DNA of 64,000 nucleotides from an uncultured Holophagales bacterium (GCA_963842525.1 CAWJGT010000003.1:1792001-1856000), one strand, 5' to 3'. Shown: positions 34,315-56,829, counted from the first letter of the stretch. The notes: generated by a model from the letters alone, not told the origin. Translations and numbers: made by a program.

Positions 34315-34341
34315 TGAGGGGGTCTCTCCTTCTCCCTCGTT
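34315..34341 (+). promoter_or_regulatory. TGAGGG-N17-CGTT motif copy 1 (upstream of sheath)
   Basis: TGAGGG 34315-34320, CGTT 34338-34341; same spacing as four other copies. Confidence 0.6.
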
Positions 34342-34453
34342 GTGTGGACGAGTAGATGAAGCGGCTCCTGGGGCGACCCGGAGCGGCGAGGCACCAACGA
34401 GAACTGTGCGCCCTGTCGGCCGGAAGGCGAGGGTCGCCAAGGAGAGAGCTCTT

Positions 34454-36367
34454 ATGCCAACGTACCTTCGGCCCGGGGTGTACGTCGAGGAGATCCCGAG
34501 CGGCTCGAAGCCGATCGGGGGAGTCGGCACTTCCACCGCCGCCTTCCTCGGATTCACCACCCGGGGGACGACCGATGATCCCACCCTGATCTTCAAGTGG
34601 GACGACTACCAGCGCCTGTACGGCGGGATTCGCGACACCGGGACCTCCGCCCAGGGCGACCCGATGGGCCATAGCGTCTTCGCCTTTTTCCAGAACGGCG
34701 GCACCGCCGCCTATATCGTGCGCCTGGCCGAGGGCGGCATCCGCTCCCGCGGCGCGATCCTGCACCCCGCTGCGGACACCACACTCTCGCCGGATGACCA
34801 ACTCGTCACCTGGACGGCTGCCAACGAGGGTGCCTGGGGCAACGATGTGCGGGTGCTGTTCAACCCCAAAACCGTGGGTGGTAAAACCACCTACGTCGCG
34901 CAGATCGGCACCGGCTCGGGCGACGATTTCCAGACACTCGAGACCTTCGGCGGGATGTCCCTCACCCAGGGCGACCCCCACTACATCGAGGGCAGGATCA
35001 ACGGCGTCTCCTCGCTGGTCACGGCGAAGGTCGAGCCCGCCTCGACCCACATGCAGGGCGTCAGCATCGGCCGGGATATGGCCAGCGTCGTCCTCAACAC
35101 CCTCAACGGCCAGTCGATGTCGGTGACAGTGGACGGCACCGCTCGCAACATCAGCTTCACCGCCAGCGAAATCGGCGACGGTGCCAAGCTCGCCGATGTG
35201 GCGGCCAAGATCCAGGAGAAGGTGCGCGAAGGCGAGAACGCTCCTGCCGTCGAGAATTTCACGGCCACGGCAGCCAACAACCGGATCGTACTGACCTCGG
35301 GCTCGCGCACCGCCACCTCCTCGGTCGTGGTCGCTCCAGCCGGCACGGCGGCGGTGATCCTCGGCCTGGGCACCGGCAACCAGGGGACGGAGCGGACGGG
35401 CGACCAGAGCCTGCGCCGTGTGCTCCCCGGGTCCAACCCCCGTGTGGAGGCCGCGCTGGCCAACGGCGGCGACGGCAGCACGGCGGGCAGCAACGCCTAC
35501 CAGGCCGCCTTCGCCAAGCTGGAGAAGATCCGCGACATCAGCATCCTCTCCCTGCCCGGCCGCGCCTATGACAACGCGGGCAAGGCGCTCGTCGACTCGG
35601 CCATCGCCCACGCGCAGAAGATGCGCAACCGGGTGGTGATCGTCGATCCGCCGCAGGGTGCGCAGCTCGTCACCGAGAACGACGTCAACGGCCTCGGCCT
35701 GCCGACGTCGACCTACTCGGTCCTCTACTACCCCTGGCTCAAGGTCGCCAACCCGTTCTACAGCGCCGAGAAGAATCCGGGCGCGCCGGTGACCGTGCTC
35801 GTGCCGCCGTCCGGCTTCGCTGCCGGCATGTGGTCGCGCATCGACGGCCGCCGCGGCGTCTGGAAGGCGCCGGCCGGCGTCGAGACGGCGCTCCTGGGCG
35901 TCGCGGGCTCCGAGTTCCAGGTCGAGGACGGCGAGCAGGACCAGCTCAACCCGCTGGGCGTCAACTGCATCCGCAAGCTGCCCAACTTCGGGCCGGTCAT
36001 CTGGGGCACCCGCACGCTGTCGACCAACGCCGACCCGGAGTGGCGCTACGTGCCGGTCCGCCGCACGGCCATCTTCATCGAGCAGAGCGTCTACAACGGC
36101 ATCCAGTGGGCCGTGTTCGAGCCCAACAATCACCAGCTCTGGTCGTCGCTGCGGGTCAACATCGATTCGTTCATGAACGGCCTGTTCCGCGCCGGAGCGT
36201 TCCAGGGCGAGAAGGCGTCCGACGCCTACTTCGTCCGCTGCGGCCTCGGCGACACCATGACCCAGGGCGACATCGACCGTGGCCAGGTCATCGTGGTGGT
36301 GGGCTTCGCGCCGCTCAAGCCGGCCGAGTTCGTCATCGTCCGCATCCAGCAGAAGGTCGGACAGTAA
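34454..36367 (+). CDS. Contractile tail sheath protein (eCIS, Afp2/3/4-like)
   Basis: MPTYLRPGVYVEE, FFQNGG, YYPW, PPSG, RGVWKAPAG, LNPLGVNCIR, WGTRTL, YVPVRR, WAVFEPN, APLKPAEFV. RBS upstream of ATG 34454. Confidence 0.96.
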   Translation: MPTYLRPGVYVEEIPSGSKPIGGVGTSTAAFLGFTTRGTTDDPTLIFKWDDYQRLYGGIRDTGTSAQGDPMGHSVFAFFQNGGTAAYIVRLAEGGIRSRGAILHPAADTTLSPDDQLVTWTAANEGAWGNDVRVLFNPKTVGGKTTYVAQIGTGSGDDFQTLETFGGMSLTQGDPHYIEGRINGVSSLVTAKVEPASTHMQGVSIGRDMASVVLNTLNGQSMSVTVDGTARNISFTASEIGDGAKLADVAAKIQEKVREGENAPAVENFTATAANNRIVLTSGSRTATSSVVVAPAGTAAVILGLGTGNQGTERTGDQSLRRVLPGSNPRVEAALANGGDGSTAGSNAYQAAFAKLEKIRDISILSLPGRAYDNAGKALVDSAIAHAQKMRNRVVIVDPPQGAQLVTENDVNGLGLPTSTYSVLYYPWLKVANPFYSAEKNPGAPVTVLVPPSGFAAGMWSRIDGRRGVWKAPAGVETALLGVAGSEFQVEDGEQDQLNPLGVNCIRKLPNFGPVIWGTRTLSTNADPEWRYVPVRRTAIFIEQSVYNGIQWAVFEPNNHQLWSSLRVNIDSFMNGLFRAGAFQGEKASDAYFVRCGLGDTMTQGDIDRGQVIVVVGFAPLKPAEFVIVRIQQKVGQ

Positions 36368-36899: not shown

Positions 36900-36902
36900 T
36901 CG

Positions 36903-37696
36903 ATGCTGCCCGGCGGACTCTGGCATCAGGGGGAGCGGCTCCGCGACTGGTCCTTCGCGCCTCTCACAGGCGCGGTGGAGCTGGCGATCGCGGAGGCCGC
37001 TCGCGGGGTGGGGAGCCTCCCCCAGCGGGTCACGGCGGTGCTGTCCGCCGCGCTGGGGGAGCTTGGAGGGGAGGTGGTGAGCCCCGAGGCGGTGCGCTCC
37101 CTCTGCGTCGCCGACCGGCAGTTCCTCATGCGGCAGCTCGCCGTCGTGCTCGGGGTGGGGGACGACTGGATGGCTGCATCGTGCAAGCGGTGCGGGAGCG
37201 CGTTCGAACGTGCCGATCCGCCATGCGGAGCTGCCGGTCAAGCCGGCGGGGCAGGGCTATCCGTTCGCGGAGGCCGAGACGAGCCTCGGTCCCTTGCGGC
37301 TGCGGGTCGCCACCGGCGCCGATCAGGAAGCGGTCGTGCGGATCGAGGACCCGGCGGAGGCCCGGCGCAAGCTCGCCCGGCGCTGCCTGGTCGAGCCGTC
37401 CGCCGGCAACCTTTCGGACGAAGATTTGGACCGGATCGACGCGGCGCTCGAGGAGGTCTCGCCGGAGCTCGTCGACACAGGCGCAGGTGGCCTGCGTCGA
37501 CTGCGGCAGCCCGAGCGAGCTGTTCCTCGATCCCTACGTCTGCCTCTCGCGGGCCAGCACGGAGATCTACTCGGATATCCACGTGCTCGCCTCCGTCTAC
37601 CACTGGAGCGAGCGGGAGATCCTGGGCCTGCCACGCGAGAGGCGCCAACTGTACATGGCCCTGGTCGACAGGGCGCGAGGAATAACGGCGGACTGA
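36903..37696 (+). CDS. eCIS baseplate/tail assembly chaperone-like protein with two CxxC motifs; frameshifts ~37210 and ~37478
   Basis: LCVADRQFL, CKRCG, LRVATGADQEAV, CVDCG, and C-terminal IHVLASVYHWSEREILGLPRERRQLY typical of post-tube eCIS genes. Confidence 0.72.
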
Positions 37697-37723: not shown

Positions 37724-39338
37724 GTGGGTTACCTGGCCGATGTAGTCGCCGACAGCCGCTCGCGGGGGACTCATGCCCCCATGCCGGAGGCTGCCGTGCC
37801 GGGGCTGGAGCCCGCGGAAGGAGAGGTCCTGGCGCCGGAGGAGATCACCGATCCCTTCCTGGACGCCGGGCCTCTCGTCAACGATCGGGCTGGGGCCGGG
37901 GTGGTGGGCTCATGGCCGCTGGAAGACCCGGCGGCCGCCGTCCGTAAGGAGGCAACCCCTTCTCCTCTGCGGGAAGACCGGAGAGTGGCTACGGGGGAGG
38001 CGAAATCCGAAAGGTGGAAGGGTCGTGAGGTCGGCGCTTCGGTGTCACCTCTTTTATCGGCTCCAACTGCTCGTAGGCAAGTACCCGAGCTCGCAAGTGA
38101 AGTCGCAGGACTCGTGGAGAGACCACAGGAGACCGCCACCCCGCCCCATCCGAATTTTGAACCTCACCCCCTGTCCCCCTCTCCCATCGCCCCCCCTGCC
38201 GCCGGGAGAGGGGGGACGCAGGCGGAGGCTTTGCGGGACAGGGAGCTCATTCGCTGATTCCAGGGACGTTGCCCCGACGCGCCCTCACCCCGGGTTGACA
38301 CCCGGGGCTACCCAGTTCCGCCCTCCGGGCTCCGGAATGCCCGGCTCTGGCGAGCCCGGAGGGCGCCATTCGGTAGCCCCGGGTGTCAACCCGGGGCGAG
38401 GGTCCCATGATCCCTTGGCCGCTGACCATGTGACCGATCTCGACGCAGGGGTGGGGCGCGGGCAGAGTCCTCACCCCCTGTCCCCCTCTCCCATCTCCCT
38501 TCCATCCCCCGCCGGGAGAGGGGGGACGCAGGCGGAGCGGCTGGGAGATACCACTCACTCTCTTGGAGCTGGGGCTGACAGAGGAGACGGAGGCCGGCGC
38601 GCTGAAGATCTACGAGGGGGTGGGCAGGGGGAAAAGCCCCAACGGGGCGCCGGCATAAAGCCTGGGGTTTCAACCCCAGGACAGCGGTCCGATTCCATCC
38701 CAAGCCCCGAAGGGGCGACGGCAGGGCAGCGGGGTTCTAACCCCGCGGGCGCGGCCCCGCCCGGGCATGAAGTGCCCGGGCTAGGAACGGCGCCGGGTGA
38801 ACCCGGCTTGAAGCCCCATTCATGGGGCGCTGTTGCTAGCCCGGCGACTTCATCGCCGGGCGGGATTGGCTCCCGAGAGCTCCCGGAGGACCCTCTCCCC
38901 CTGGCCCCCTCTCCCGTGCGTCCCCCGGCCCTCCACCCCGAACGGGAGAGGGGGAACGCTGTGGTGGCTGGTGGGGATGAGCCGACCGCAAGCGGCAAGG
39001 CCGTTTTCGCAGAGCCCGTCCCGCCGCGGCAGGACGGGGGGGTGGGAGCCTGGGACCGCGGGCGTCTCGCCCGCCCAGAGCCGAGCCGACAGCTTCAGCA
39101 CCGATCAGCGCCACCGCTGCCGCCCACCCAGGCCCTGTCCCTTCCTTCCTTGCCTCCTCTCGCCCGCCGGGCGGAGCGAGGCCAGGGAAGGGAGTCCCAG
39201 GCACCGCGCGTCAGCATCGGGACCCTCGAAGTCGTCATCACCGTGCCCGAGCCCACCGTTCCCCAGGAGGCTCCGGCCGCGCCACCTCCGAGCGCCGGCG
39301 AGTCGTTCGCCAGCCGTTTCTATCTGAGATCTCTGTAA
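37724..39338 (+). CDS. Low-complexity eCIS-associated protein, riddled with palindromic repeats and split by a stop/frameshift at ~38257
   Basis: N-terminus MGYLADVVADSR with RBS; C-terminus PRVSIGTLEVVI...FASRFYLRSL directly before the DUF4255 gene. The middle is largely translated REP sequence. Confidence 0.55.
38162..38227. repeat. CCTCACCCCCTGTCCCCCTCTCCC...GGGAGAGGGGGGACGCAGGCGGAG palindromic element
   Basis: Near-identical second copy at 38469-38537 and a related copy at 38891-38954. Confidence 0.8.
38288..38396. repeat. GTAG-type REP doublet (REPIN-like hairpin)
   Basis: Perfect 25-bp inverted repeat (38288-38312 / 38372-38396, GGTAGCCCCGGGTGTCAACCCGGGG) plus an inner 14-bp IR (38319-38332 / 38352-38365). 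Confidence 0.8.
38634..38820. repeat. REP cluster (AGCCCC.AAGGGGC / ATAAAGCCTGGGGTTTCAACCCCAGG family)
   Basis: Several short palindromes; the same family appears in reverse complement at 53706-53750. Confidence 0.7.
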
Positions 39339-41546: not shown

Positions 41547-42377
41547 ATGAAAGGAACCGCAGTCTTTCCCGCCGTGCTCCTTCTGGCCCTGACGGCCCAC
41601 CCTTCCCAGGCGTCCGTTGTCGCCAAGCTGACGTTCAACGGTGCCGGAACCGCGGCGCCCGTCGTCGTCCCCCTCAATATAGGCAACGTGCCGCTCGGCA
41701 CGATCGTGGACATCAACCTGGAGCTCTGCTTCAAGCAGCCGGCTTCGCCGCAGGGTTCCTGCGACCAGAGCGGAACGGTGAGCCTGGAAGAGCAACTCGC
41801 CCCACCGTTTTTCTTCGTCGCAGCGTTCCGCGAAGCCCTGGCAACGGGGGCGACGACACCGGTCAGCTTCCCCGTCACCCTCGCGGCAGGGCAGCGCCTG
41901 ATCGTGCTCAGCCACTGGGTTCCCGACCGGATCGGTTCAGTCACCGACTCCCTGGTGCTGCAAGGCTCCTCGGGCGCCGACACCGATATCTTCCGTGTCG
42001 ACCTCACAGGGTCGGGCGTGCCCTCCGGGGCATGTGTGCCGAGCTCTCAGGCGCTTTGTCTCGGCAACGGCCGCTTCAAGGTGCAGTCGGATTTTCTGAG
42101 CTCGACGGACTCGGAGGCGGCGCGGGGGGGCGAACTGACCGACGACACCGGGTATCTCTATTTCTTCAGCCCATCGAACGTCGAGGCAGTGGTCAAGGTG
42201 CTCAACGCCTGCTCGTTCAACAACCGGTTCTGGGTCTTCGCCGGCGGTTTGACCGATGTGCGCACCGTGATCAGCGTCACCGACACGCAACGAAATGTCG
42301 TCAAGACCTATATCAACCCCCAAGGGACGCCATTCCGGCCAATCCAGGACACCGGCGCCTTCGCTACCTGTCCGTGA
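41547..42377 (+). CDS. Secreted protein: signal peptide, Ig-like region and C-terminal 'LCLGNGRFKV' Cys-containing domain (passenger in the eCIS locus)
   Basis: GAGGAGG RBS; MKGTAVFPAVLLLALTAHPSQA signal; CVPSSQALCLGNGRFKV...DDTGYLYFFSPSNVEAVVKVLNAC..NNRFWVFAGGLTDV...IQDTGAFATCP. Confidence 0.8.
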   Translation: MKGTAVFPAVLLLALTAHPSQASVVAKLTFNGAGTAAPVVVPLNIGNVPLGTIVDINLELCFKQPASPQGSCDQSGTVSLEEQLAPPFFFVAAFREALATGATTPVSFPVTLAAGQRLIVLSHWVPDRIGSVTDSLVLQGSSGADTDIFRVDLTGSGVPSGACVPSSQALCLGNGRFKVQSDFLSSTDSEAARGGELTDDTGYLYFFSPSNVEAVVKVLNACSFNNRFWVFAGGLTDVRTVISVTDTQRNVVKTYINPQGTPFRPIQDTGAFATCP

Positions 42378-42407: not shown

Positions 42408-42434
42408 TGAGGGTCCCCGGCGGCCGTGAGCGTT
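42408..42434 (+). promoter_or_regulatory. TGAGGG-N17-CGTT motif copy 2
   Basis: TGAGGG 42408-42413, CGTT 42431-42434; followed by CCTGTCGGCGGAGAGG shared with copy 3. Confidence 0.7.
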
Positions 42435-42464: not shown

Positions 42465-43115
42465 ATGATGCTCAACCTGACCAAGGCCGCCTTGATCGAA
42501 TATGCGCTCTCCGTTCCGCCGCTCGCGCTGGTCTTCGACCTCAACCCGGAGAGCCTGACGCGCACGCGCACGGTCACCCTGCGCAACGGCGGGACGAACG
42601 CCACCCGTGGCGGCTATGACTTCAAGCTGCCCACCGAGACCCCCCGCGCTGCGCTGGGGATCGCCGTGCAGCCCGAGATTTTCAGCATCGAGGTCCTGTT
42701 CAACGCCACCGACCGCATGAACGACGGTGATCCGCAGGCTTCGGTCCTGGGCATCCAGCCCGAGCTCGACACCCTGCGCACCATGGTCGAGCCGAAGTCG
42801 CAGGGACCGGGCGGGTTCCAGATGCTCGCCAGCCTGGGCCTGGGCGGTCAGCGCGCGTTCCAGCGCCAACAGTCGGCCTCGGTGCTGCTGTTCGTCTGGG
42901 GCACCCACCTGCTGCCCGTCTTCCTGACCAGCGTGCGGGTGACCGAGAAGGCCCACCTGCCGTCGCTCGTCCCCTACCGCGCCAACGTCGCCCTGCAGAT
43001 GCAGGTCATCGAGGGGAACAACCCCTTCTACACCGTGGAGAAGGTCCGCCAGGTGGCGAGCGCGGCGGTCAACACCGGGCGCGCCGCCGGCGTCATCGTG
43101 GGAGGGCTCTTCTGA
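42465..43115 (+). CDS. CIS tube-initiator-like protein (Afp7 N-terminal part)
   Basis: FDLNPESLTRTR, LGIQPELDTLRTMV, VLLFVWG..LLPVFLTSVRVTE....LVPYRA pattern; precedes the LysM and hub genes. Confidence 0.78.
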   Translation: MMLNLTKAALIEYALSVPPLALVFDLNPESLTRTRTVTLRNGGTNATRGGYDFKLPTETPRAALGIAVQPEIFSIEVLFNATDRMNDGDPQASVLGIQPELDTLRTMVEPKSQGPGGFQMLASLGLGGQRAFQRQQSASVLLFVWGTHLLPVFLTSVRVTEKAHLPSLVPYRANVALQMQVIEGNNPFYTVEKVRQVASAAVNTGRAAGVIVGGLF

Positions 43116-43405: not shown

Positions 43406-43408
43406 GCC

Positions 43409-44564
43409 GTGTCCTTCGGCCTCCTCTCCGAGCAGCACCGGGAGCCGGCGAGCTGCGTCATCAAGGTCGGCGTCGCCGGGCTGGAGATCGGCGACCTCTA
43501 CCCCCATCTCACTGAAGTCCTGGTCGAGCACAGCCGGCACGGCGCCTGGACGGCGGCGCTCACCTTCCAGTCACGGCGCGACGAGCAGGGGCATTGGCTG
43601 GTGCAGGATGCGGGCGTCTTCGCTCCCTGGGAGCCGATCGTCCTTGCCGCCGCCTTCGCCAGCAGCACGGAGGAGATCCTGCGCGGCTATGTGCGCGAGG
43701 TGCAGGCGAGCTATCCGCGGGACCCCGGCGCCGCGGCGGTCGTCGTCCACTGCCAGGACGAGTCGCTCGCCCTCGACCGCGAGCATGTGCGGAAGACCTG
43801 GGGTACCGCCGAGGTACCGACGAGCGACTCCCTGATCCTCCTGGAGATCCTGGGCAAGCACAACCTGGCCCCGCACCCGCTCTCCGGCCAGGGGCTCTCG
43901 GGGCTCGTCCTCTACCAGGACGGCACGGACGCCGCCTTTCTGCGCGCGCGCGCCGAGGCCAACGGCTATGAGCTCGTCTTCAGCGAAGGGATGGTCTATT
44001 TCGGCCCCATGCGCCTGCAGGGGGAGCCGCAGCCGGCCATCCTGGTCTATGCCGGCCCCGGCACCCACTGCCTCGACCTCAAGGTGACCGTCGACGGCCA
44101 CCAGCCGGAGAAGATCTCCTATCAGGTGGCCGCCGCCGAAGGGACGTCGACCGAGGAAGCAGACGGTCGAGCCCGACCTGCCGCTGCTCGGCCTCGAGCC
44201 GGCCGCGGGCGGCGGCCCGGGCCTCAAGGACTTCGTCTGGCGGCTGCGCCGGACCGGCACGGCGAGCGACGAGGAGCTGCAGGCGCGCGCCCTCGGCAAG
44301 GCCAACGAGCTGGCCCTGCGCGTCCACGCCGACGGCGAGCTCGACGGCACCCTCTACGGCCAGGTGCTGCGCGTCGGCGAGACCGTCGCCCTCGACGGCG
44401 TGGGGGAGAGGCTCAACGGCCTCTACTACGTCGACCGCGTCACCCATCGCTTCACGTCCAGCGGCTATCACCAGGCCTTCCGGCTGCTGCGCAACGCCTA
44501 TGGAGACAACGTGCCGGGAGGGGGCGCGCTCGGCGCGATTTCGTCGGCGGTCGCTCTGCTCTGA
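43409..44564 (+). CDS. Baseplate hub / phage late-control D (gp27-like, VgrG N-part); frameshift ~44160
   Basis: QDGTDAAFLRARAEANGY; shifted frame ADGELDGTLYGQVLRVGETV..DGVG..LNGLYYVDRVTH....YHQAFRLLRNA. Confidence 0.85.
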
Positions 44565-44713
44565 GTCTCGCAGAGCACGAAGACGCCGTGCGTGTAGGGC
44601 GGGTCGAAGTCGTTGGTCGCCTGGGCGAGGTCGAACCAGAGGTCCCAGGCGCGGTCCAGCTCCTCCCGGGTCATGTCCTTGAGATTGAGGTCATCCTCAC
44701 TGAGCAGCTCCAT
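44498..44713 (-). CDS. Small acidic protein, translationally coupled to the upstream nucleotidyltransferase-like gene
   Basis: MELLSEDDLNLKDMTREELDRAWDLWFDLAQATND...YTHGVF; GGAGG RBS inside the end of the previous gene. Confidence 0.6.
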   Translation of the reverse strand: MELLSEDDLNLKDMTREELDRAWDLWFDLAQATNDFDPPYTHGVFVLCETQSRATADEIAPSAPPPGTLSP

Positions 44714-45511
44714 GCTCGTCCTCCATGCCGAGAGGCCTGAGGGGATTATTGGGCAGCAAGCGCTGCGCGAGATCGCAGAGACGCCGATGCGCCTCCTGCA
44801 GGTCGAGGTCGCCGATCCGGGCGGCCTGGAATTCCCGGAGATATGCCTCGGACGCCGCCTTGTATCGATCGAGCCTTGCCCGATCCACCTGCTGAAGGCG
44901 GTCGGCCTCCCGGGCGAGCTCGACCACGACCGCCTCACGCGATCCTCCGGCCAGGACAGCCTGGACCGCAGGACGCCGCGAGCGCTGGCCGTGCAGGGGG
45001 GCCAAGGTGAGGATGCGGTCCGGGTCGGTCGTGAGCTCCATCTCCCGCTCGGGAGGAAGGAGACGGGCCAGCTCGCCGATCACCGGATAATCCTTCGCCC
45101 GCTGAGTCTGTTTCATGTGGATGAGCGGCTCGACATCCAGGACGAGCAGGTCTCGCGGGGATTCCCCGGCATCGAACAGACGAGCGACCTCTTCGGGCGA
45201 CACCCGGGGCGGACGAGAGAGAAGTCGCAGCGGATCCTCCGGCGCTGGGAGTCCGTGAGCTCGAAGTGGCTCGACCAGCCGCCGGCCAGCCAGCGGACAT
45301 CGAGAGGCGCTCCGGGACGGTACCGGGCCCCATACCGTTGAAGAACGGCGAGCACCCGGCTACAGGCCTCCGGGGTTTCCCGCACGATCCAATCGCCATC
45401 CTTGCTCATCATGGCGATCTGGTAGTACACGACCGCCTGCCCGGAGGTGAGCGCCACGACAGTCCCTTCAGCATTGAGCTCTTCCGTCAGGTCGAAGTAG
45501 ATATTGCTCAT
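44697..45511 (-). CDS. Nucleotidyltransferase-like protein (Pol-beta superfamily, TA-type); frameshift ~45222
   Basis: LTSGQAVVYY..MSKDGDWIV (GS/DxD-like), RCDF, LIHMKQTQRAKDY (K..R.KD motif); GGAGG RBS. Confidence 0.65.
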
Positions 45512-45624
45512 CCCGAGCCTCCCTGAAGAGCATAACGCGGTCGCCTCGGCCCATCAGTGTGTGCCGGTGAGGTACGTCCGGGCGGATGTGGTGGTCGCGG
45601 ACCAGACGTGTTACGGGGATGCTG

Positions 45625-45865
45625 CGCGCGACTGGGACCATGGTGCGCGTGGCCGGCACCACCAGGCGCGTCACGCGGACCGCGTTGCCTGTGACTTGCC
45701 CCGGCAGTGGGCGTCGGGCTTCGCCGTGCGCGCGACAGGCACCATGGTGCGCGTGACCGGCACCACCAGGCGCGTCACACGGACCTCGGTGCCTGTGGCT
45801 GGCCCCGGCAGTGGAGGCCGGGCTTCGCGGTCCGCGCGACTGGCACCACGGTGCGCATGACCGGG
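45625..45865. repeat. ~104-bp tandem repeat (2.3 units) built from ~21-nt subunits
   Basis: Units begin at 45631, 45735 and 45839 (GCGCGAC.GG.ACCA.GGTGCGC.TG.CCGG). Confidence 0.75.
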
Positions 45866-45953
45866 AGCCCGGTCCCTCGGACTTGTCTCCTCCTATGGCC
45901 GGCAGGGGGTGAGGGCTCTGCGCGCCGCTGCACGACTTGCGAGACACCCTTGG

Positions 45954-45980
45954 TGAGGGTCTCCACCCTGCCCGAGCGTT
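45954..45980 (+). promoter_or_regulatory. TGAGGG-N17-CGTT motif copy 3
   Basis: TGAGGG 45954-45959, CGTT 45977-45980; a 23-bp block is identical to copy 2. Confidence 0.7.
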
Positions 45981-46032
45981 CCTGTCGGCGGAGAGGCGAA
46001 CGACGCCGGTATGACCCCGAGAGGGAGGTCCT

Positions 46033-46848
46033 GTGGAAGAGCTTTTAGCGCAGTTGGCCCGCGAGGTCCAGCGGAAGTACTACGGTAAATACCGCGGCTT
46101 CGTGGTGGAAAACAAGGACCCCGAGAAGCGGGGCCGGCTGCGGCTGCTGGTGCCCTCGGTGCTGGGCACGGAGGAGACCGCCTGGGCCCTTCCCTGCCTG
46201 CCGTTCGGCGGCGCTGCCGGGCACGGCCTGTTCACCGTGCCGGAGAACGACGCCCAGGTCTGGGTCGAGTTCGAGGAGGGCGAGCTGGCGCAGCCGATCT
46301 GGACCGGCACCTTCTGGCAGAAGCAGGGCGATCCGCCGGACGAGGCCACTGCCGGCGAGGGCCCGACCGCGCGGGTCTTGAAGACCCCCGGCGGCCACAT
46401 CCTCCTGTTCGACGACGAGAAGGACAAGGAGAAGCTCCGCCTCGTCCACCCGAGCGGCTCCGAGATCGCCATCGACGAGAAGGGCATCCTCTCGCTGACC
46501 GACTCCGGCGGCTCCAAGGTGACCCTGGACGCCGACGCCGGCACGCTGACCGTCGAAGACTCGAACGGCAACACCCTGACGATGAGCTCCAGCGGCACCA
46601 CCGTCGAGGACTCCAACGGCAACAAGATCGAAATGGCAGCGGCCGGCGTCACCGTCGAGGGGAAGAAGGTGGTGGTCAAGGGCCAGACGGTCATGCTGGC
46701 CGGCGACGGCGGCGAGCCGATCATCAAGGGCCAGAGCTTCCTGGCGCTCTTCGCCACCCATGTCCATCCGACCGCCATGGGGCCCTCGGGCCCGCCGATT
46801 CCGCAGGGCGAGATGTCGACCCTGTCCACGAAAGTCCTGACCTCCTAG
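46033..46848 (+). CDS. Spike protein (gp5/gpV OB-fold plus beta-helix) with C-terminal HxH apex motif
   Basis: YYGKYRGFV..NKDPEKRGRL..VP.V, WALPC.P, VWVEFEEG...PIWTG, beta-repeats EDSNGN, terminal THVHPT. Confidence 0.92.
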   Translation: MEELLAQLAREVQRKYYGKYRGFVVENKDPEKRGRLRLLVPSVLGTEETAWALPCLPFGGAAGHGLFTVPENDAQVWVEFEEGELAQPIWTGTFWQKQGDPPDEATAGEGPTARVLKTPGGHILLFDDEKDKEKLRLVHPSGSEIAIDEKGILSLTDSGGSKVTLDADAGTLTVEDSNGNTLTMSSSGTTVEDSNGNKIEMAAAGVTVEGKKVVVKGQTVMLAGDGGEPIIKGQSFLALFATHVHPTAMGPSGPPIPQGEMSTLSTKVLTS

Positions 46849-48450: not shown

Positions 48451-51400
48451 GCGCCGCCGACCGCGATCTCACCCGCTGGAACCGCTCGGGCCTCAAGCGC
48501 TTCCGCTACGTGGACGGCAATGCCGCCACGCACCTGGAGGAGCTGCGCCTCGCACTGCTCTCCCGCTTCCTGCACGAGAAGGCCGGAGGCGGTCAAGGGA
48601 TCCGGACGCGGCCGCAGCCTCGACTGGTGGCGCGAGGTCTGGGCCGATCCTCCCGATGCCGCCTCCGACCCCGACGGCCGCGAGGCGCTCGACGGCCTGC
48701 TCACCGACCTCCGCGGCCGTCTCGCCTGGACCGGCGAGGGCTCCGACCCCGGGCCGCTCTGGACGCCCGTGCCGCCGCGCCCCGAGGCCGAGGGCGAGCG
48801 CGCCGGCCGCCTGCTCGGGCAGTATGAGGGGGCGCGCCGCGACCTCGCCTGGGAGGTCGTGCGCTCCTTCTCCCGCGCCGCGCACGTCCTGACCGAGCAC
48901 CTGGACGCCTACGCCAACGAGGGGTTCCTGGGCACCGCCACGCAGTGGGAGAGCGTCCGCCGGCTGGCCGCCATGCTCGACGCCCGCCCGGCGCCGCCGG
49001 CCTCCGCCTCGACGGTGCTGCTGCTCCAGGCCAAGGAGGGGCGCCAGGGGGTGGTGGAGAAGGGCTTCCAGGTCAAGCACACGCCCGCGGACGGCGGCGC
49101 GCCCGTGATCTTCGAGACCCTGGAAAACATCCAGGTGGATGCCGCCCTCGACGAGCTGCGCCCGCTCGGGTTCGACCGCAACCCCGAGCTCCTGCAGGGC
49201 TCGCGGCTCGACCTCGCCGGCCGGATCAAGGGGTTGCGCACCGGCGAGCCGCTGATCCTGGAGGACGACCGCAACGGCCAGCTCCACGCCCATGTGATCC
49301 GCGGCGTGCTGGAGGAGGACGCGGCGACAATAGTTGACGTGGCGCCGCCGGTCGCCGGCGGCCCCGGCGGACTACCGCGCGGACACGTGATCGTCCACTC
49401 CGTGCCCCGCGATCGCCTGGCGCCGCTCGCCCCCGCCGCCACTTCCGTTCAGATCGGGCGCGCCCTCCACCTCGCCGAGGAGCCGTCCGGCCTGGCGGTG
49501 GGCGAGACCGTCTGGATCGGCGACGGCCGGCGGTCGCTCTTCCGGCGGGTGGACGCGGTCCAGGGCCGCCGCCTCACGGTCTACGAGGACATCGGCGAGC
49601 TGCGGGTCGACCTCACGGAGGTCGGGCGCCCGGTGCTCGTGCCGGTGACCAGCATCACGGGCCGCACGGTCGAGCAGACGCAGGACGGCCAGAACGTGGA
49701 CGTCCTCGCGGTCAAGGTGGCCGGCGACTGGACGCGCCTGCTCGGCGGCTGGGTGGCTGGCCGGCGCGGCGGCAGCCTGGCCCCCTGCCGGGTGTTCGGG
49801 GTGGACTACCGCCCCGTGGGCTCGGGCGTCGGACGACGCCGGCTACTCCTTCCTCCGCCTGGAGTGGCAGCACGGCGGCACGGGGAACCTGAACCCGCAG
49901 ACGCTCCTCGCGCCGCCGCCGGGCGGCGGCGTCTGGAGGGCCGACCGCTTCCTGGTCGAGGAAAGCTCCCGGGTGCCGCGCGACCTGGTCACCACCGTGC
50001 CCAAGAAGACGGCGGCCGGCGACCTGGCGGCCGTGGTAAGCGGCGGGCGGGTGGCCTGGGCCCGGCTGGGAGCGGTCGAGGTCGACACCGCCAGGGAGCA
50101 GGCAACCCTTCGCGCCGAGGCCGATTGGCGCGACCGCGGCGGGGCGCCGTACTTCTTCGCCGGGACCACTGTATACGGCCACTTCGAGCACCGCGTGCGC
50201 CTCGCCGGCTGGGACCGCAACGACCAGCCGCTCGCCGGCAGCGAGGTGCCGCTGGCGCAGGTGCCCGCGGCTCTGCGCTCCGGCCGCATCGTCTTCCTGG
50301 GGCGGCTGGACCAGCCCGGCGCCGGCCGGGTCGCCAAGGTGGGCGAGGTCAGGGACCGGTCGATCGTGCTCGACGCCGTGCTGCCGGAGGGCTCGACCTA
50401 CGGCAACCTGGTGCTGCGCGGCAACACGGTCGCGGCCGGGCACGGCGAGGCCAAGGAGGAAAGGGTCCTGGGCAGCGGCGACGCCTCGCAGTCGGGGCAG
50501 GTCTTCGTCCTGCGCGACAAGGGGGTCTCCTTCGTGGCCGACTCGAACCACCCGGCCGGCGTGCGGGCGGACATCGAGGTCCGCGTCGGCGACCGCGCCT
50601 GGCAGCAGGTGCCGACCCTCGCCGACTCCGGGCCGGCCGACCCGCACTTCGTGCTGCGCATGACCGAGGACGGCGGGCTCGAGCTGACCTTCGGCGACGG
50701 CCGCAACGGGCGCCGCCTGCCGACCGGCACCAACAACGTGCGCATCGCCTACCGGGTGGGTACGGGCCTCGCCGGCAACCTGCCGCCGGGGCGGCTGGAA
50801 AAGCCGGCCCGCCCGCATCCGCTGATCGAAGCCGTGCGGCAGCCGCTGCCGGCGACCGGGGGCAACGACATGGAGGCGATCGAGTCGTTGCGCGCCACGG
50901 CGCCGGCGAGCGTCTCAACCCTTGGCCGCGCCGTTTCGCTGGCCGATTTCGGACGGCTGGCGGCGAGCCAGAGCAGCCTCTGGCAGGCGCGCGCCTTCCC
51001 GTTGCCGGCGGGCATCGGCCGGCAGGAGAGCGTGCGGGTGGTCGTGGTGCCAGCCGGCGGCGGCCCCTTGGACGGCCTCGCCGTCTCGCTGCAGGCCTTC
51101 CTGGAGGCCCATGCCCTGCCCGGCGTGGCGGTGCGGGTGGAGCGCTACACCTCGGTGGCGATCTCGCTCCACGTCACGCTGCAGATCAAGACCGCCGAGT
51201 TCGATCCCGACCGCGTCCTCGCGGCCGTCCGCGAGCGCCTGCTCGAGGCCTTCGGCCTGCGCGGCCGGCGCATGGGGCAGGCGCTGCGCCTCGGCGAGAT
51301 CTACCACGTCGTCGAAGGGGTGAGCGGCGTCTCCAACTCGCTCTGCGTCCTCGACGGCGACCCCGCCCGCAACCATGTCGTGGCGCCGCCGGACGGCGTG

Positions 51401-51460
51401 GTCCACCTGGATGCGGAGCAGTCCTCCCTGATCGTTGTCTACAAGGAGTTCGAGCTGTGA
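48447..51460 (+). CDS. Large baseplate J-like assembly protein (Afp11/12-like); frameshifts ~48590 and ~49825
   Basis: RWNRSGL.RFRYVDGNA, ANEGFLGTATQWESVRRL, FETLE, GNTVAAGHGE, LGSGDA, FGDGRNGRRLPTG.NNV..YRVG.G..GN, RAVSLADF. Confidence 0.85.
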
Positions 51461-53187
51461 ACGATCTCGAGACCCGCACCGGAAACCAGCTCTACGACCT
51501 CCTCCCGGAGGTCTATCGTAGCCGCGACGACGGCAGCCTCGCCGCCTGGATGAATGGCATGGGGCACCTCCTGGACCTTGTCCGCAACACGCTGGAGCAG
51601 CGGCTGGCCGACTGCTTCCCGGACGCACCGCTGCGCGGCCGGGCCAGCCAGGACTGGCTGCTGCCGTACTTCGCCGACCTGCTGGAGCCGCACATGATCT
51701 CCTCCGACCCCCGCGCCCAGCGCGCCGAGGTGGCGAACGCCATTGCCTGGCGGCAGCGCAAGGGGACGGTCGCCGTGGCTGAGCAGGTCGCCCAGGGGGT
51801 CGGGCAGATCGAGGTCGAGGTCCAGGAGGGGTGGAAGCGCGTCGCCGTCACCCCGCGGATCGGTGGCACCCCGCCGCCTCCGCCTCCCATGGAAGGAGAT
51901 CCCTGGGCCGACGGGCCGGCCGGCACGGTGGCCTTCGGCTTCCCGTCGCGCGCCGTCCGCGTCGATCCCGAGGATCCGGCCGCGCGCGTCACCCGCTTCG
52001 GCGACCAGTGGATCCCCTGGCGCCAGGCCCATGCCTCGGGCACACCCGCCTTCCCCGGCAGCTACGAGGACGTCTCGGCCCGTACCGTGGACATGCGCTC
52101 GCCCGACTGGCGCTGCGGGCACGCCCATCCGCGGCGGCTGCTGCTCTACTATCCGCCGCAGGGCGGCTTCTTTCCGCCCGGGGCGCCGGTGGTGGACTGG
52201 TACGCCTGGGCCTCCCGGCGCTCGATCTTCGAGCAGGGGCTCGCGCAGCTCGATGCCGGAGAGGAGAGCCGGATCTCGTTCAGCGATGTCTCGGCCGAAC
52301 GGCTCCCCGAGTCCCAGGGCATCGCGCGCGTCCTGATCAAGAAAGGCGGCGCTCTCGTAGGCGAGCGCATCAGCGAGCCCCACGGCCGGGTCACCCTGCG
52401 GATGCTCCTCTCCGGGCGGTGGATGGAGAGGAGCACCAAGCCCGGGGAGCCCGTCCTCTACCGTGGCGACGGCCGGCCGGTGATCGTCCGCGCCAGCAGC
52501 TCCGGCAATACCATCCACCTCGGTTCGGAGCTCCGCGTGGACTTCGAAGGGCTCTCCTTCGACGCGAGGCTCATCGGCAGCAACGGAACCCGCCTCAGGT
52601 TCCGCAATTCGGCCGCCCGGGAGGTCAACGTGCCGACGGCGGACCTGCATGAGCCTGTCATCGAGGCCGTCGATTCCCTCTTCGACTGGTTCGCCGCAAT
52701 CAACGGCCTTGTGCGCCTCGAATACGTGACCGTTCTGTCCGAGATCGCGGCGTCAGCGGCGTCGCGCGTCCAGGTGAGCGATTCGCTGCTGGTGGGGCAG
52801 CTCCAGATCTTCTCCTCCCAGCTCCCGAGCGTGATCCGCTATTCGCGCCTGCCCTGGCTCCCTGAGGGGGCGCCGGTCCTGGCGGCGTTCAATACCACGG
52901 AGCGCCCCCTGTTCGTGGAGCTGGACTTCCAGGAGGACGCCGGGACCGTCCGGCGCGCGGCCCGCTTCGGCGAGCCCGGCGCCGGCGTGCTCCACCCCGA
53001 AGCGCCGCGGGCGATCCGCCTCGGCGCCGAGGACGGCGGAGAGATGGGGGCCTATCACGGACGCCGCTACAGCCTGACGGCCGAGGCGGTCCGCAACAAG
53101 CTCGAAGACTACCTGCCGGTCGGCGTCGAGGCAGTGCTGATCCCCGATCCGCAACTCCTCAACCCGCCGCCCGAGCTCGAAGGGTGA
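51457..53187 (+). CDS. Baseplate gp7/P2 gpI-like tail protein
   Basis: GTG overlaps the previous stop; LYDLLPEVYRSRD, WLLPYFADLL, RAEVANAIAWRQRKGT, GAEDGGEMGAYH, LEDYLPVG. Confidence 0.82.
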   Translation: MNDLETRTGNQLYDLLPEVYRSRDDGSLAAWMNGMGHLLDLVRNTLEQRLADCFPDAPLRGRASQDWLLPYFADLLEPHMISSDPRAQRAEVANAIAWRQRKGTVAVAEQVAQGVGQIEVEVQEGWKRVAVTPRIGGTPPPPPPMEGDPWADGPAGTVAFGFPSRAVRVDPEDPAARVTRFGDQWIPWRQAHASGTPAFPGSYEDVSARTVDMRSPDWRCGHAHPRRLLLYYPPQGGFFPPGAPVVDWYAWASRRSIFEQGLAQLDAGEESRISFSDVSAERLPESQGIARVLIKKGGALVGERISEPHGRVTLRMLLSGRWMERSTKPGEPVLYRGDGRPVIVRASSSGNTIHLGSELRVDFEGLSFDARLIGSNGTRLRFRNSAAREVNVPTADLHEPVIEAVDSLFDWFAAINGLVRLEYVTVLSEIAASAASRVQVSDSLLVGQLQIFSSQLPSVIRYSRLPWLPEGAPVLAAFNTTERPLFVELDFQEDAGTVRRAARFGEPGAGVLHPEAPRAIRLGAEDGGEMGAYHGRRYSLTAEAVRNKLEDYLPVGVEAVLIPDPQLLNPPPELEG

Positions 53188-53233
53188 GAGGCATTTACTC
53201 GGCATTTACTCCTGCCGGATGCTGGGAATTCCC

Positions 53234-53467
53234 TCAGGGGGTGCAGCAGGCGATCCCACACTGCACTCCCGCCCGTCTGCAATCGCGCATGCACGCACTG
53301 AAGCCGGGATCCCCCTGCGGCGGACAGGTCGCCAGGCAGCTGTTGGTTACTACACTGCAGCCGCAATCGTCACCTGAGCATGCAGCGACGACCTTGGAAG
53401 GAACCGCCACGATCGTCAGGAGGACGAGACAGAGCGTTGCAAGCAGGTAAACAAGTTTGGTCCTCAT
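53234..53467 (-). CDS. Small secreted cysteine-rich peptide (77 aa; 10 Cys in the mature part)
   Basis: [10 protein letters not shown]; signal MRTKLVYLLATLCLVLLTIVAVPSKVVA; mature ACSGDDCGCSVVTNSCLATCPPQGDPGFSACMRDCRRAGVQCGIACCTP. Confidence 0.72.
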   Translation of the reverse strand: MRTKLVYLLATLCLVLLTIVAVPSKVVAACSGDDCGCSVVTNSCLATCPPQGDPGFSACMRDCRRAGVQCGIACCTP

Positions 53468-53530
53468 AGGCTCTCCCTTAGTAAGCAGCTTTCCTATTAT
53501 CTCTTTGTCAGATTCGCTTCGGATGGAGAG

Positions 53531-53750
53531 GCCCCGAAGGGGCTTGGGCATAAAGCCTGGCGCTTCAGCGCCAGTTGGCGCCCCCCAATGACCTGGAGCC
53601 CTGAAGGGGCGCAGGCATTCTCTACCATCCACCCGCGGCGGGGCTCGCGCCCCTCGCCCGTGCCGTCGCCCTTTCAGGGCTTTGGGTCAATATTGGGCCT
53701 CGGTCCTGGGGTTGAAACCCCAGGCTTTACGCCTTTGCCCCTGCGGGGCT
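53531..53750. repeat. REP cluster (inverted doublet), same family as 38634-38720
   Basis: GCCCCGAAGGGGC, ATAAAGCCTGGCGCTTCAGCGCCAG, CCTGGGGTTGAAACCCCAGGCTTTA, GCCCCTGCGGGGC. Confidence 0.75.
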
Positions 53751-53847
53751 GCCGCCAGCCAGGGCCAATCTGACAAATAGAATTATGGCATCACAGGTCG
53801 TTGAGCACGCAAGCCCCGAGCGTGGAGCGTAGGGTCTCCAAGCATCC

Positions 53848-53874
53848 TGAGGGGGTCCGGGCTCGGGCAGCGTT
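53848..53874 (+). promoter_or_regulatory. TGAGGG-N17-CGTT motif copy 4
   Basis: TGAGGG 53848-53853, CGTT 53871-53874. Confidence 0.68.
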
Positions 53875-53937: not shown

Positions 53938-56805
53938 ATGAAGACTCAGATCTCCAGGAACGGATATGCCGCCGAGAAGCGCTACTCCGGGGTCTACCAG
54001 CAGCAGGGCAGCATCCTCACGGACCGCGACTGGAACGAGATGGTCGATGTCCTCAAGGGGCGCATCGACGAAGGATTGGCCCACGCGGTGGGGGCCGGCC
54101 TGGCGCGCAGCGGCGCCGTCGAGATCCTGCCGGGCTCCAGCTCGCAGGGGCTCGCGATCCGACCCGGGACGGTCTACGCCGGGGGGGTGACAGCCCAGGT
54201 CGCGCCCGCCGCCGGGGCCGCGGTCCCCTTCCGCTACGACCAGCAGGCCGACTTCCCGTCGCCCCCTGCGCTGCCTGCGGGCCAGGACTACGTCCTCTAC
54301 GCGGACATCTGGGAGCGGCCGGTGCTGGCCATGGAGGACGAAGGCCTGCGCGACCGCGCCCTGACCGGGGCGGCCGATCCCAGCACCCGCAGCCAGACCC
54401 TGGCGCAGATCAAGTGGGCCCCGGCTTCCTCGGACCCGGAAGACCCGGGCCAGAATCCACCGCGCGGCAACGCAATCCTCAGGGTGTCCGTGCCGTCGCA
54501 GGACCACCTCCCCGGACCCGATACCGACACCCTTCCGGAAGCCGTCGATCCGCTGGGCAGAGACGTCCTCCTCCGTCTGGAGGTCCACAACGTGACCTGG
54601 CCGGAAGAAGCCCCGCCGGAGTGGTGGTCCCGCATCGTCCTCAAGTGGTCGCGGGAGAACGGCGCGCGGCAGTACCGCTACCTGGAGGTGCCCCCCTGGT
54701 TCAAGACCGGGACGTGGATCTACGAGCTCTACGACCCGGAGGCCGAAAAGCACCTGGGCTACACCTTCGGGAGCTGGACCCCGGTGCGCGGAACGCTTTC
54801 GTCGACGTTCCCCGAGGTGAGCGGGGAGATCGCCGCACGCTCCTTCGTCCGGCGCTGGGACGGCTACTGCATCGTCTCGAGAACGGACTCCAGCAATCCC
54901 CACCTCCCTGCTTTCCAATTTGACGAGGACCCCGCGACGACCGCTCCCGGGTCCGTGGTCACCCTGTCCTCCTGGGAGGAGCCCTCCCCCGATGGGGACC
55001 TGGCCGTGAATCTCGGCCATCTCAGGCTCGACCTCACCCTCCAGAGCTCCGTCCTCCTGGCCGGAGACTCCTGGCAGGTCCCGGTCCGCCGGGCCGGCTA
55101 TCTACCCGGATCACAGATCCTGGCGGATCTGCCGTCGGGAGTTGCGCACCGCTACGCGACCCTGGCCACGGTCAGTGCCGCGGGGGCCGTGACGCCGCGG
55201 CTAGCCACCTTCTCGCCCCTGACCGCGCTCCAGGCGGGCGATGTCGCCTACGACGGCAGCGGTGCCACGAACGGCCTCTTCAACGCCTCCCACAATACGG
55301 TGAAGAAGGCGCTGGACCGACTCTGGAGCCTCGGCGCCGAGCACGCCGGGTACACCAGGTCCGCGAACAAAGGGGTCTACAAGGACAGATCCGCCGCCAA
55401 CGTCAAGCAGGCATTGGACCTGCTGAGCGACGTCCGTGCGCGGCAGATCGTCTACGACGGGCGGACGGGCGTGCCCGATCCTCAGGCCGCTCTGGACGCG
55501 TTGTTCAACCGCTCCACCAAGCTCAACGCCTGGACCACGGTCGGCGGGGCCGGGCAATATACGTCAGTCAATGCGGCGGTCACCGCGCTCCTCGCGCAAC
55601 AGAAGCGCGACATCCGCCTGTGGCTGCTGCCGGGCGATCATCGAGCTCGATCCGACGCAGCCGCTGATCACCGCGCAGGACGCGGTCCATCTGACCCTCG
55701 CGGGTGCCGGCTGGGTCTCCCGCCTGCTCGTCCGGGGAGCGGTCTCGTTCCAGGGCTTCGCCTCGGTGACGTTCCAGGGGCTGGCCGTCGAAGTCGACCG
55801 CCTGGCCGGCGTGTTTGTGAGCGGCGGCGAGTCTCTCTCCTGGACAACCGCATCTCGGGCATTTGCACCGAGGACGGCAAGGGTTTGATCCATTCGACCG
55901 GCAGCTCCCGCATCCTGCTGCGGGACAACATCGTCGAAGCCTCCCGGAACGATCCCACGGTGGAGCCGGTGTCGATCCTCGCGCCGCTCGATACCGAGGC
56001 CGCGCTGCGCGAGCTGTTCTCGACGCGCTCGCCCAGGCTGTTCGCGCTGCGTGCCAACGCGATGGACCTGCGGGTGCAGGCGCTCACGAAAGCCGAGCGC
56101 CAGCAGAGGGCGGACGCCATCCAGGCGCTGCTGGACCTGCGCCCGGACCTCCCGAAGGGGGCCTACAACACCTTCGTGACCAATCTGCGCGGCACATCTG
56201 TCGGTTTTCTCAACGGCACCTTGTCCCCGATCCGCGTCGAAGCCGTGCGGCGGGCGCTCCCCGGCACCTTTCTCACGATCGACGACATCGCCGGCAGCGT
56301 GCGCCTGGAGGGCAACCAGATCTTCGGCACCGTGAGCCTCTACGGGGCGCCCGGCGGCGAGCTCACCTCTGCCGATCTCCAGCGCATCGCCGGGCAGATC
56401 ACGACGATTTCCTTCGACGCGGCAGGCGGGTATGACCTCGTGGCCCGCAACAACAGGATGACCGGCTTCCGCATCGGCAAAGCGAGAGTCGAGCGACTCC
56501 AGGCCCAGAACGGCGCCGGGCTCGTCTATCGCCGCATCTGCCTGCGCGACAACACGATCGACAGCACCGGCAATCAGCTCCTGGCCGGCGCCGTCTCGCT
56601 GCAATCGAACCTCGTCCTCGCCGCGCCCACGTGGGGATGGATGATCACGGACGAGGCCTTGCTCCAGCTCAACCTGACGCGCTTCGCCGTGACGCAGAGC
56701 GCCACGGCCATCGATGTCCTGGCGCGGAGCGGGGTGACGGCGCTCAACGGGGCCTCCTTCAACGTACGTCAGCCGGCGTCGGAGTTGGCTCCCACGGTCC
56801 CCTGA
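53938..56805 (+). CDS. DUF6519-like eCIS protein (putative tail fibre) with C-terminal beta-helix, paralog 1; compensating frameshifts ~55640 and ~55835
   Basis: MKTQISR...KRYSGVYQQQG.ILTDRDWNE, LYADIWERPV..ED..LRD.AL, LRLEVH, KWSRENG, RRWDG, GDSWQVPVR, and NxI beta-helix rungs. Confidence 0.8.
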   Translation: MKTQISRNGYAAEKRYSGVYQQQGSILTDRDWNEMVDVLKGRIDEGLAHAVGAGLARSGAVEILPGSSSQGLAIRPGTVYAGGVTAQVAPAAGAAVPFRYDQQADFPSPPALPAGQDYVLYADIWERPVLAMEDEGLRDRALTGAADPSTRSQTLAQIKWAPASSDPEDPGQNPPRGNAILRVSVPSQDHLPGPDTDTLPEAVDPLGRDVLLRLEVHNVTWPEEAPPEWWSRIVLKWSRENGARQYRYLEVPPWFKTGTWIYELYDPEAEKHLGYTFGSWTPVRGTLSSTFPEVSGEIAARSFVRRWDGYCIVSRTDSSNPHLPAFQFDEDPATTAPGSVVTLSSWEEPSPDGDLAVNLGHLRLDLTLQSSVLLAGDSWQVPVRRAGYLPGSQILADLPSGVAHRYATLATVSAAGAVTPRLATFSPLTALQAGDVAYDGSGATNGLFNASHNTVKKALDRLWSLGAEHAGYTRSANKGVYKDRSAANVKQALDLLSDVRARQIVYDGRTGVPDPQAALDALFNRSTKLNAWTTVGGAGQYTSVNAAVTALLAQQKRDIRLWLLPGDHRARSDAAADHRAGRGPSDPRGCRLGLPPARPGSGLVPGLRLGDVPGAGRRSRPPGRRVCERRRVSLLDNRISGICTEDGKGLIHSTGSSRILLRDNIVEASRNDPTVEPVSILAPLDTEAALRELFSTRSPRLFALRANAMDLRVQALTKAERQQRADAIQALLDLRPDLPKGAYNTFVTNLRGTSVGFLNGTLSPIRVEAVRRALPGTFLTIDDIAGSVRLEGNQIFGTVSLYGAPGGELTSADLQRIAGQITTISFDAAGGYDLVARNNRMTGFRIGKARVERLQAQNGAGLVYRRICLRDNTIDSTGNQLLAGAVSLQSNLVLAAPTWGWMITDEALLQLNLTRFAVTQSATAIDVLARSGVTALNGASFNVRQPASELAPTVP

Positions 56806-56829
56806 GGGGACTCGGGACCGACTGGCGTT
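56803..56829 (+). promoter_or_regulatory. TGAGGG-N17-CGTT motif copy 5 (its TGA is the stop codon of paralog 1)
   Basis: TGAGGG 56803-56808, CGTT 56826-56829. Confidence 0.68.

Follow-up and report, generated by a model that had tools for sequence, protein, structure and literature searches.

A fixed-spacing TGAGGG-N17-CGTT element repeated along an acidobacterial contractile injection operon: candidate promoters of a dedicated alternative sigma factor

[quoted passage not shown] The question takes a concrete form in a stretch of 64,000 bases from an uncultured Holophagales bacterium (GCA_963842525.1, CAWJGT010000003.1:1792001-1856000; G+C content 69.8%), referred to in its full length as the window, where an eCIS operon carries several copies of the two-box element TGAGGG-N17-CGTT. 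What is this element, and what reads it? In an initial annotation of the same DNA, five copies were interpreted as promoters that restart sub-operons under the control of one extracytoplasmic function (ECF) sigma factor. The comparison of sequences presented here suggests that the copies, which number six, probably serve as promoters for a single alternative factor of the sigma-70 family that is dedicated to this injection machinery. That the factor is an ECF sigma in the strict sense is possible and somewhat doubtful.

An exact search of both strands of the window yields six matches to TGAGGG-N17-CGTT. All of them are located on the plus strand and within the eCIS operon, as had been claimed for the orientation, and none occurs in the 34 kilobases (kb) outside the operon. 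The five positions listed initially (34315, 42408, 45954, 53848, and 56803) are all correct, while a sixth, at 52863, had been overlooked. The copies are the following (distances in nucleotides, nt, from the end of CGTT):

Copy 1: 34315..34341, plus strand, 112 nt 5' of the sheath ATG at 34454, after a minus-strand MoaF-like gene remnant.
Copy 2: 42408..42434, plus strand, 30 nt 5' of the ATG at 42465 of the CIS tube-family gene, just past an inserted secreted-protein gene; its orthologue is L002:300.
Copy 3: 45954..45980, plus strand, 52 nt 5' of the spike GTG at 46033, on the right-hand edge of a 1.47 kb insert.
Copy 4: 52863..52889, plus strand, within the last baseplate gene, in its 3' part (codons P-E-G ... 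A-F); its orthologue is L002:9313.
Copy 5: 53848..53874, plus strand, 63 nt 5' of the ATG at 53938 of fibre-like gene 1, on the right-hand edge of a 0.66 kb insert.
Copy 6: 56803..56829, plus strand, 65 nt 5' of the ATG at 56895 of fibre-like gene 2.

The distance to the start codon is therefore 30-112 nt for five of the six copies, in agreement with the 30-115 nt given at first. The description of the copies as lying in or next to intergenic gaps applies to these five and fails for copy 4, which sits inside a coding sequence. Fibre-like gene 1 takes its stop codon from copy 6, whose TGAGGG supplies the TGA.

The element is enriched in the window. In 100 dinucleotide-preserving shuffles the element was found 0.17 times on average and twice at most, and none of the shuffles reached six. 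With up to one mismatch, nine matches were obtained in total against 4.49 expected; the three additional ones are unconvincing. As the motif had been defined post hoc, a de novo control was performed over all words of the form 6-mer, 17 nt, 4-mer present in the window. TGAGGG/CGTT ranks second among them with a -log10 Poisson p of 10.7 (the location of the other top words was not examined), as compared with a highest value of 8.25 and a mean of 5.41 in 40 Markov-simulated windows. A position matrix trained on eight sites (the six of the window and two from the related locus L002) gives scores of 26.6-35 bits at these sites, which as training sites provide no independent evidence, and at most 14 bits everywhere else in the window and in 39 related loci.

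The spacer measures 17 nt in all eight copies. Its sequence varies (ungapped identity of 0.12-0.59 between non-orthologous copies), which bears out the earlier description of fixed boxes around a variable spacer; the extended form GCGTTCC is likewise present in four of the five copies first listed, the exception being 34315. A degenerate tandem copy, TGAGGG-N17-CGAC, can be seen by eye at 45910-45936, 44 nt 5' of copy 3.

The related loci (L001-L039) come from one search of genome contigs with the tube-family protein, and the operon is syntenic with all 39. The closest relatives of this protein, from metagenome-assembled genomes (MAGs) of Thermoanaerobaculia and Holophagales, are 77-81% identical to it; identity amounts to 60-81% for L001-L024 and L036, and to 46-50% for L026-L035 and L037-L039. 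Together with the G+C content and with Acido-Lenti-1 RNA motifs found by Rfam, these relatives indicate that the DNA most likely comes from an acidobacterium. The scan of homologous loci proposed in the initial annotation gives a divided answer: the exact form recurs only in L002, the closest relative (81% protein identity), and a second form is found in five others. L002 has two copies. One, at L002:300, lies 39 nt 5' of the match to the tube gene and is orthologous to copy 2; the other, at L002:9313, lies about 315 nt 5' of the fibre-like gene and is orthologous to copy 4. The boxes are identical between the window and L002, whereas the spacers differ at 12 and 10 of their 17 positions. The baseplate protein around copy 4 is variable in sequence and length over 27 aligned rows from relatives, and only the window and L002 retain the boxes there; constraint on the protein therefore does not explain the boxes of copy 4.

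The second form, TGGCG[GT]-N16/17-CGTA, is present in five acidobacterial loci (L001, L003, L004, L005, and L017), all of which lack the TGAGGG form. It is referred to as the sister motif. In the 85,535 bases of these loci it occurs 12 times on the plus strand and never on the minus strand (null mean 0.27); the other 34 loci together with the window (652 kb) contain one occurrence on the plus strand and four on the minus strand. The spacer is 17 nt long in 11 of the 12 copies and 16 nt long in the remaining one. The sister motif occupies places that correspond to the three boundaries where copies 1, 2, and 4 stand in the window: 97-104 nt 5' of the sheath ATG in all three loci that reach the sheath gene, just 5' of the tube-family gene in all five loci, and 35-40 nt 5' of the fibre-like gene in four of five, L017 being the exception. 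At the tube and fibre places, the sister motif shares bases with the final codons and the stop codon of the gene before it. In L001, L003, L004, and L005 it is translated, at the ends of the small gene that precedes the tube-family gene and of the last baseplate gene, as similar C-terminal tails that read GGSSALNP and HGVPPALKT before the stop codon, so that promoter-like DNA seems to dictate protein tails in these four loci.

Promoters of an alternative sigma-70-family factor are suggested by the combination of two unlike boxes, a rigid spacer of 17 nt, a single orientation, and placement 5' of gene blocks. The same reading is favoured by the lack of a sigma-70 consensus promoter, the lack of a common RNA fold, and the positionally equivalent second form that relatives carry. 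A scan for sigma-70 consensus promoters found none on the plus strand between 33.9 and 64 kb (zero in 33.9-46.2 kb, and one, on the minus strand, in 46.2-64 kb). The idea that the copies restart sub-operons draws support from their shared orientation and rigid spacing, from the copies in L002, and from the sister motif. Terminator-like sites occur at chance level (five against 4.5 expected and six against 5.4 expected), which provides no evidence of terminators preceding the copies. Since the boxes are not the same in genomes that share 77-81% identity in the tube-family protein, the reader is probably not the housekeeping sigma factor, and a fast-evolving pair of sigma factor and promoter would fit better.

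The blocks in question belong to an operon with an Afp/PVC-like eCIS gene set, identified with Pfam and NCBIfam, that starts on the plus strand at 34.4 kb and contains sheath, tube, spike, gp25-like, Baseplate_J-like, AAA ATPase, and Pvc16_N cap genes between 34.4 and 53.2 kb. The genes next to the motif copies are:

34454..36367, plus strand: sheath gene, with Phage_sheath_1 and Phage_sheath_1C domains; the true start is the ATG at 34454.
42465..43115, plus strand: CIS tube-family gene by family match, called "tube initiator" in the initial annotation; ATG at 42465.
46033..46848, plus strand: spike gene, with a Phage_base_V OB domain, VgrG-related; GTG start.
51500..53187, plus strand: last baseplate gene, with a weak Tail_P2_I match and an approximate start; it holds copy 4.
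53938..56805, plus strand: DUF6519 fibre-like gene 1, by family match.
56895..59799, plus strand: DUF6519 fibre-like gene 2, by family match; its reading frame shifts near 58.5 kb.

In the proposed mechanism, TGAGGG would serve as a -35-like box and CGTT(C) as a -10-like box, exactly 17 nt apart, both read by one dedicated sigma factor, with transcription predicted to start about 6-9 nt past CGTT. The ancestral layout may have comprised three promoters, located before the sheath block, before the tube-family/baseplate block, and before the fibre-like gene, and the lineage of the window would retain them as copies 1, 2, and 4. Copy 3 would have been gained by duplication of copy 2 with its leader, and copies 5 and 6 would be gains as well. 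As a result, the spike and fibre-like genes could still have a promoter behind the inserted segments, two of which contain genes on the opposite strand. The specificity of the sigma factor apparently differs between close lineages, with TGAGGG/CGTT in the window and L002 and TGGCG[GT]/CGTA in the five other relatives.

The copies themselves are partly akin. Copy 3 has a leader that is a duplicate of the one at copy 2, ATG included (z 15.5). Copies 5 and 6 have downstream sequence in common (z 5.6), copies 4 and 5 some upstream sequence (z 4.0), and copy 1 resembles none of the others. Only the boxes are common to copy 1, the pair 2/3, copy 4, and the pair 5/6.

Several points weigh against a dedicated sigma factor and six working promoters. 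Being in part duplicates of one another, the six copies are not six independent events; the copies of the relatives stand at orthologous positions in related genomes, and their counts overstate the number of independent events as well. No gene for a sigma-70-family factor was found among the scanned open reading frames (ORFs) of the window (Sigma70_r2: none in 39 + 14 ORFs; Pfam, NCBIfam). In 24 related loci, 19 + 74 ORFs within 0.8-3.6 kb upstream of the sheath gene gave no Sigma70_r2 match with Pfam, after a pre-filter by size (at least 110 residues in one scan) and third-position G+C that could miss small or atypical genes. The only Sigma70_r4_2 matches are a weak one in the helix-turn-helix of a sigma-54 activator encoded in the window and one in a GerE-domain ORF of L023. 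The -35-like box contains no AAC, either in the eight copies with TGAGGG or in the 12 sister copies with TGGCG[GT]. In the five relatives, the sister copy at the tube gene ends only 11 nt 5' of the ATG, which would leave an almost leaderless transcript. The other 33 loci, from more distant relatives, have neither form of the motif at these positions. Finally, the locus may be decaying, and the promoters could then be relics.

The class of the factor depends on how the two boxes are judged. ECF promoters have a spacing of about 16-17 nt, and the rigid 17 nt of all eight copies agree with this. CGTT, present in all six copies of the window and both copies of L002, supplies the expected -10 with CGT, so that this half of the ECF label stands; the other half is not supported by TGAGGG. 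ECF promoters are described as having a -10 box with CGT (CGTT for EcfG-type factors) and AAC as the hallmark of the -35 (PMC8103513). The likeness to them extends to two short boxes, rigid spacing, a CGT-based -10, and a small dedicated set of promoters. The differences are a -35 of TGAGGG, or TGGCG[GT] in the relatives, without AAC, and the fact that neither the window nor the scanned loci showed a gene for an ECF or anti-sigma factor or a sigma promoter under autoregulation. If the candidate factor is of ECF type, its -35 specificity would be unusual.

The alternative that survives best ascribes the motif to an activator other than a sigma factor. Its binding site would replace or overlap the -35 region in a class II-like manner, and the housekeeping polymerase would use a weak -10 near CGTT. 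The candidates would be a regulator not seen in the data or the first of the following features, which lie between the left part of the window and the operon:

29786-30448: OmpR-family response regulator, upstream of the operon.
32510..34072, plus strand: sigma-54 enhancer-binding protein (Sigma54_activat, E 5.1e-47) with an intact GAFTGA loop.
34031-34330, minus strand: remnant of a MoaF-like gene that lacks a start codon (Pfam MoaF_like, E 1.2e-4), located between copy 1 and the activator gene.

An activator would be consistent with the presence of the OmpR-type gene in the window, with the GerE-domain gene located directly upstream of the operon in L023, and with a -35 box devoid of the ECF hallmark. 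Moreover, the main text of the survey by Geller et al. (2021, PMC8213781) names GerE/LuxR, BTAD, and RfaH as eCIS-linked regulators and nowhere uses the word "sigma". Regulatory elements linked to eCIS operons are common to that survey and the present case; there they are regulator genes beside the operon, with no mention of a cis motif in the passages on them, whereas here a cis element is seen and no such gene is adjacent. The two boxes of the motif, however, are unlike each other and form no direct or inverted repeat. Such repeats are usual where dimers of the OmpR or LuxR type bind. In addition, 17 nt between a 6-mer and a CGT box corresponds to the geometry of the sigma-70 family, and the upstream regulators are not conserved among the relatives that keep the motif positions. 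An activator site is therefore considered unlikely.

Could the motif instead act in the RNA, as a processing, antitermination, or translation signal, or be a scar or recombination site at the right ends of inserts, with no role in starting transcription? The position of several copies invites the idea. Insertions were called by comparison with L002, L004, and L017, and three are relevant:

41547..42377, plus strand: inserted gene whose product has a signal-peptide-like N-terminus; L001, L003, L004, L005, and L017 lack a counterpart here.
44565..46032 (no single strand): insert with protein-like ORFs on the minus strand; L002, L004, and L017 have a gap of 18-75 nt instead.
53188..53847 (no single strand): insert with a small Cys-rich ORF on the minus strand and Acido-Lenti-1 copies; the gap in L002 is about 20 nt.

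Copies 2, 3, and 5 are found at the right-hand ends of these segments, which are missing from relatives, in accordance with the initial observation that three copies follow insertions; with copy 1, four copies adjoin the right-hand boundary of segments foreign to the operon. A scar or an RNA signal could also account for the origin of copy 3 by duplication, for the TGA of copy 6 that doubles as a stop codon, and for the overlap of CGTA with the stop codon TAA at two of the three positions in the relatives. Against this, copy 4, both copies in L002, and all 12 sister copies are sited where no insertion exists; because of this, the motif can be taken to predate the inserts and not to be their scar. 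Folding of the six leaders revealed no consistent structure (z-scores from -2.46 to +2.28), and no Rfam family overlaps any copy. The copies are all in direct orientation and non-palindromic, and invertase or attC-type sites look different. An RNA signal or scar is thus regarded as improbable. More likely, the inserts are tolerated just 5' of a promoter, or a promoter was duplicated after them; copy 3 is a clear case of such duplication.

That the pattern has no function at all, and is a by-product of duplications in a decaying locus combined with chance, would fit a motif defined post hoc, the shared flanks of copies 2/3 and 5/6, and the frame changes in at least five eCIS genes. It is nevertheless very improbable, as site 1, the pair 2/3, site 4, and the pair 5/6 share the boxes alone, the window and L002 retain identical boxes around diverged spacers, a different and equivalent motif marks the same three boundaries in five relatives, and the signal exceeds all 40 null maxima.

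The enhancer-binding protein raises one more alternative. Its gene, which the initial annotation did not note, lies immediately upstream of the eCIS operon in the same orientation, its N-terminal domain has no family match, and its adjacency meant that control by sigma-54 had to be excluded. That the copies are sigma-54 promoters driven by this protein is scarcely credible: for all that an activator with an intact GAFTGA adjoins copy 1, and that L015, a relative within this eCIS family, carries an activator of the kind with a perfect TGGCACCGCGCTTGC behind it at 1983-1997, no copy contains GG-N10-GC, the starts of the conserved boxes are 23 nt apart as against 11 in sigma-54 promoters, the consensus is not enriched in the window, and an activator stands beside the operon only in the window and L015, which share just the AAA+ domain (33% over 254 residues). 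TGGCAC-N5-TTGC gave no match in the window at fewer than two mismatches, and 40 at two mismatches against 52.45 expected; with no fitting copy and no enrichment, the sequence brings the sigma-54 reading close to refutation. A cascade from the activator to a sigma gene and on to the six promoters is at most conceivable.

L015 itself, a Piscinibacter MAG, carries the sigma-54 activator gene at 316-1716, followed by the perfect TGGCACCGCGCTTGC, with inverted repeats upstream. The site is roughly 35 nt 5' of the candidate first start codon of the operon, as read from the sequence with no ORF call or family search. L015 thus appears to be a sigma-54-dependent eCIS. It resembles the window in having an activator gene directly upstream of the operon in the same orientation, and differs in its perfect sigma-54 promoter, which has no counterpart in the window, where the architecture of the motif is different. 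Control of a contractile machine by a sigma-54 enhancer-binding protein is known from VasH and Vibrio cholerae's type VI secretion system (T6SS).

Promoters of the alternative-sigma type at the head of sub-operons are already known as a kind, of which the present case would be a variant. Among titles and abstract openings (supplements excluded), no eCIS under a dedicated sigma factor and no repeated eCIS promoter motif was found; at that level, the literature joining contractile injection and ECF sigma factors concerns T6SS, Streptomyces, or cyanobacteria. The T6SS of Xanthomonas citri is reported to depend on the ECF sigma factor EcfK and the kinase PknS (PMC13147305). It is a contractile injection machine under a dedicated alternative sigma factor, as is proposed for the window; it differs in that it is cell-anchored and its sigma factor and kinase are known, while the system in the window is extracellular and has six putative promoter copies. 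For the eCIS cluster of Streptomyces coelicolor, four co-regulated promoters in two divergent regions have been described (PMC10020575). Here again several promoters are involved, with the same temporal pattern in S. coelicolor; they occupy two divergent intergenic regions, with no shared motif given in the available part of that report, as opposed to six co-directional copies along one operon, one of them intragenic.

A broader picture can be drawn, tentatively, and is on the whole somewhat unlikely to hold in every part. Acidobacterial eCIS operons might carry their own fast-evolving pair of sigma factor and promoter in at least two forms, marking the sheath, tube/baseplate, and fibre boundaries, with some promoters located within the last codons of the preceding gene; copies duplicated behind foreign DNA would keep the particle genes expressed, and the factor might be ECF-like or phage-derived, with a G-rich -35 specificity not yet described. 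If such a pair exists, the operon can tolerate the insertion of extra genes. The locus would then illustrate how a long structural operon may take up insertions, partly of opposite strand, and still express the genes downstream. An operon-specific cis motif conserved in position provides a handle for finding the regulator. It would also allow the prediction of regulons in uncultured Acidobacteriota, and could serve as an orthogonal pair of promoter and sigma factor.

The integrity of the operon deserves separate mention. Several eCIS genes shift frame at points where the ORF is single and intact in L002, L004, and L017, and at least five genes are concerned. The changes fall at 36900-37690, 43406-44561, 48520-51460, 55500-55800, and 58500, and affect, among others, the second tube gene (twice), the large baseplate gene at 49.8 kb, and the gene of 385 residues that follows the tube-family gene at 43.4-44.6 kb. 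Both fibre-like paralogues shift frame at most about 25 nt past a common LLPGDH motif, and fibre-like gene 1 regains its frame about 200 nt further on. No long homopolymers were present at the five frame-change sites inspected (37.2, 37.47, 44.14, 49.82, and 58.5 kb). Pseudogenisation, local misassembly, or something programmed could be the cause. The giant ORFs on the minus strand at 0.3-29.8 kb, outside the operon, have intact reading frames.

At the left edge of the operon, the MoaF-like remnant points to a rearrangement; further genes upstream encode a hydrolase, an acetyltransferase, and, on the minus strand, a rhomboid protein. On the 3' side of the fibre-like genes, an ORF of 1307 residues (59678-63601) and the next one (63614-64000) have no Pfam or NCBIfam match and could be cargo or effector genes of the injection system.

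Within the insert that precedes copy 5, the minus-strand ORF at 53234-53632 encodes a product of about 77 residues, counted from MRTKLVY, that is hydrophobic at its N-terminus and then continues into a Cys-rich tail; it has no family match. The Acido-Lenti-1 RNA motif of Rfam is found at 38288-38331 (plus), 38353-38396 (minus), 38635-38680 (minus), 53530-53575 (minus), and 53705-53750 (plus), with three copies at or above the gathering score and two below it, partly as inverted pairs. All of these copies fall in operon segments that relatives do not conserve, with one pair in the insert just 5' of copy 5, and they look like a dispersed repeat element.

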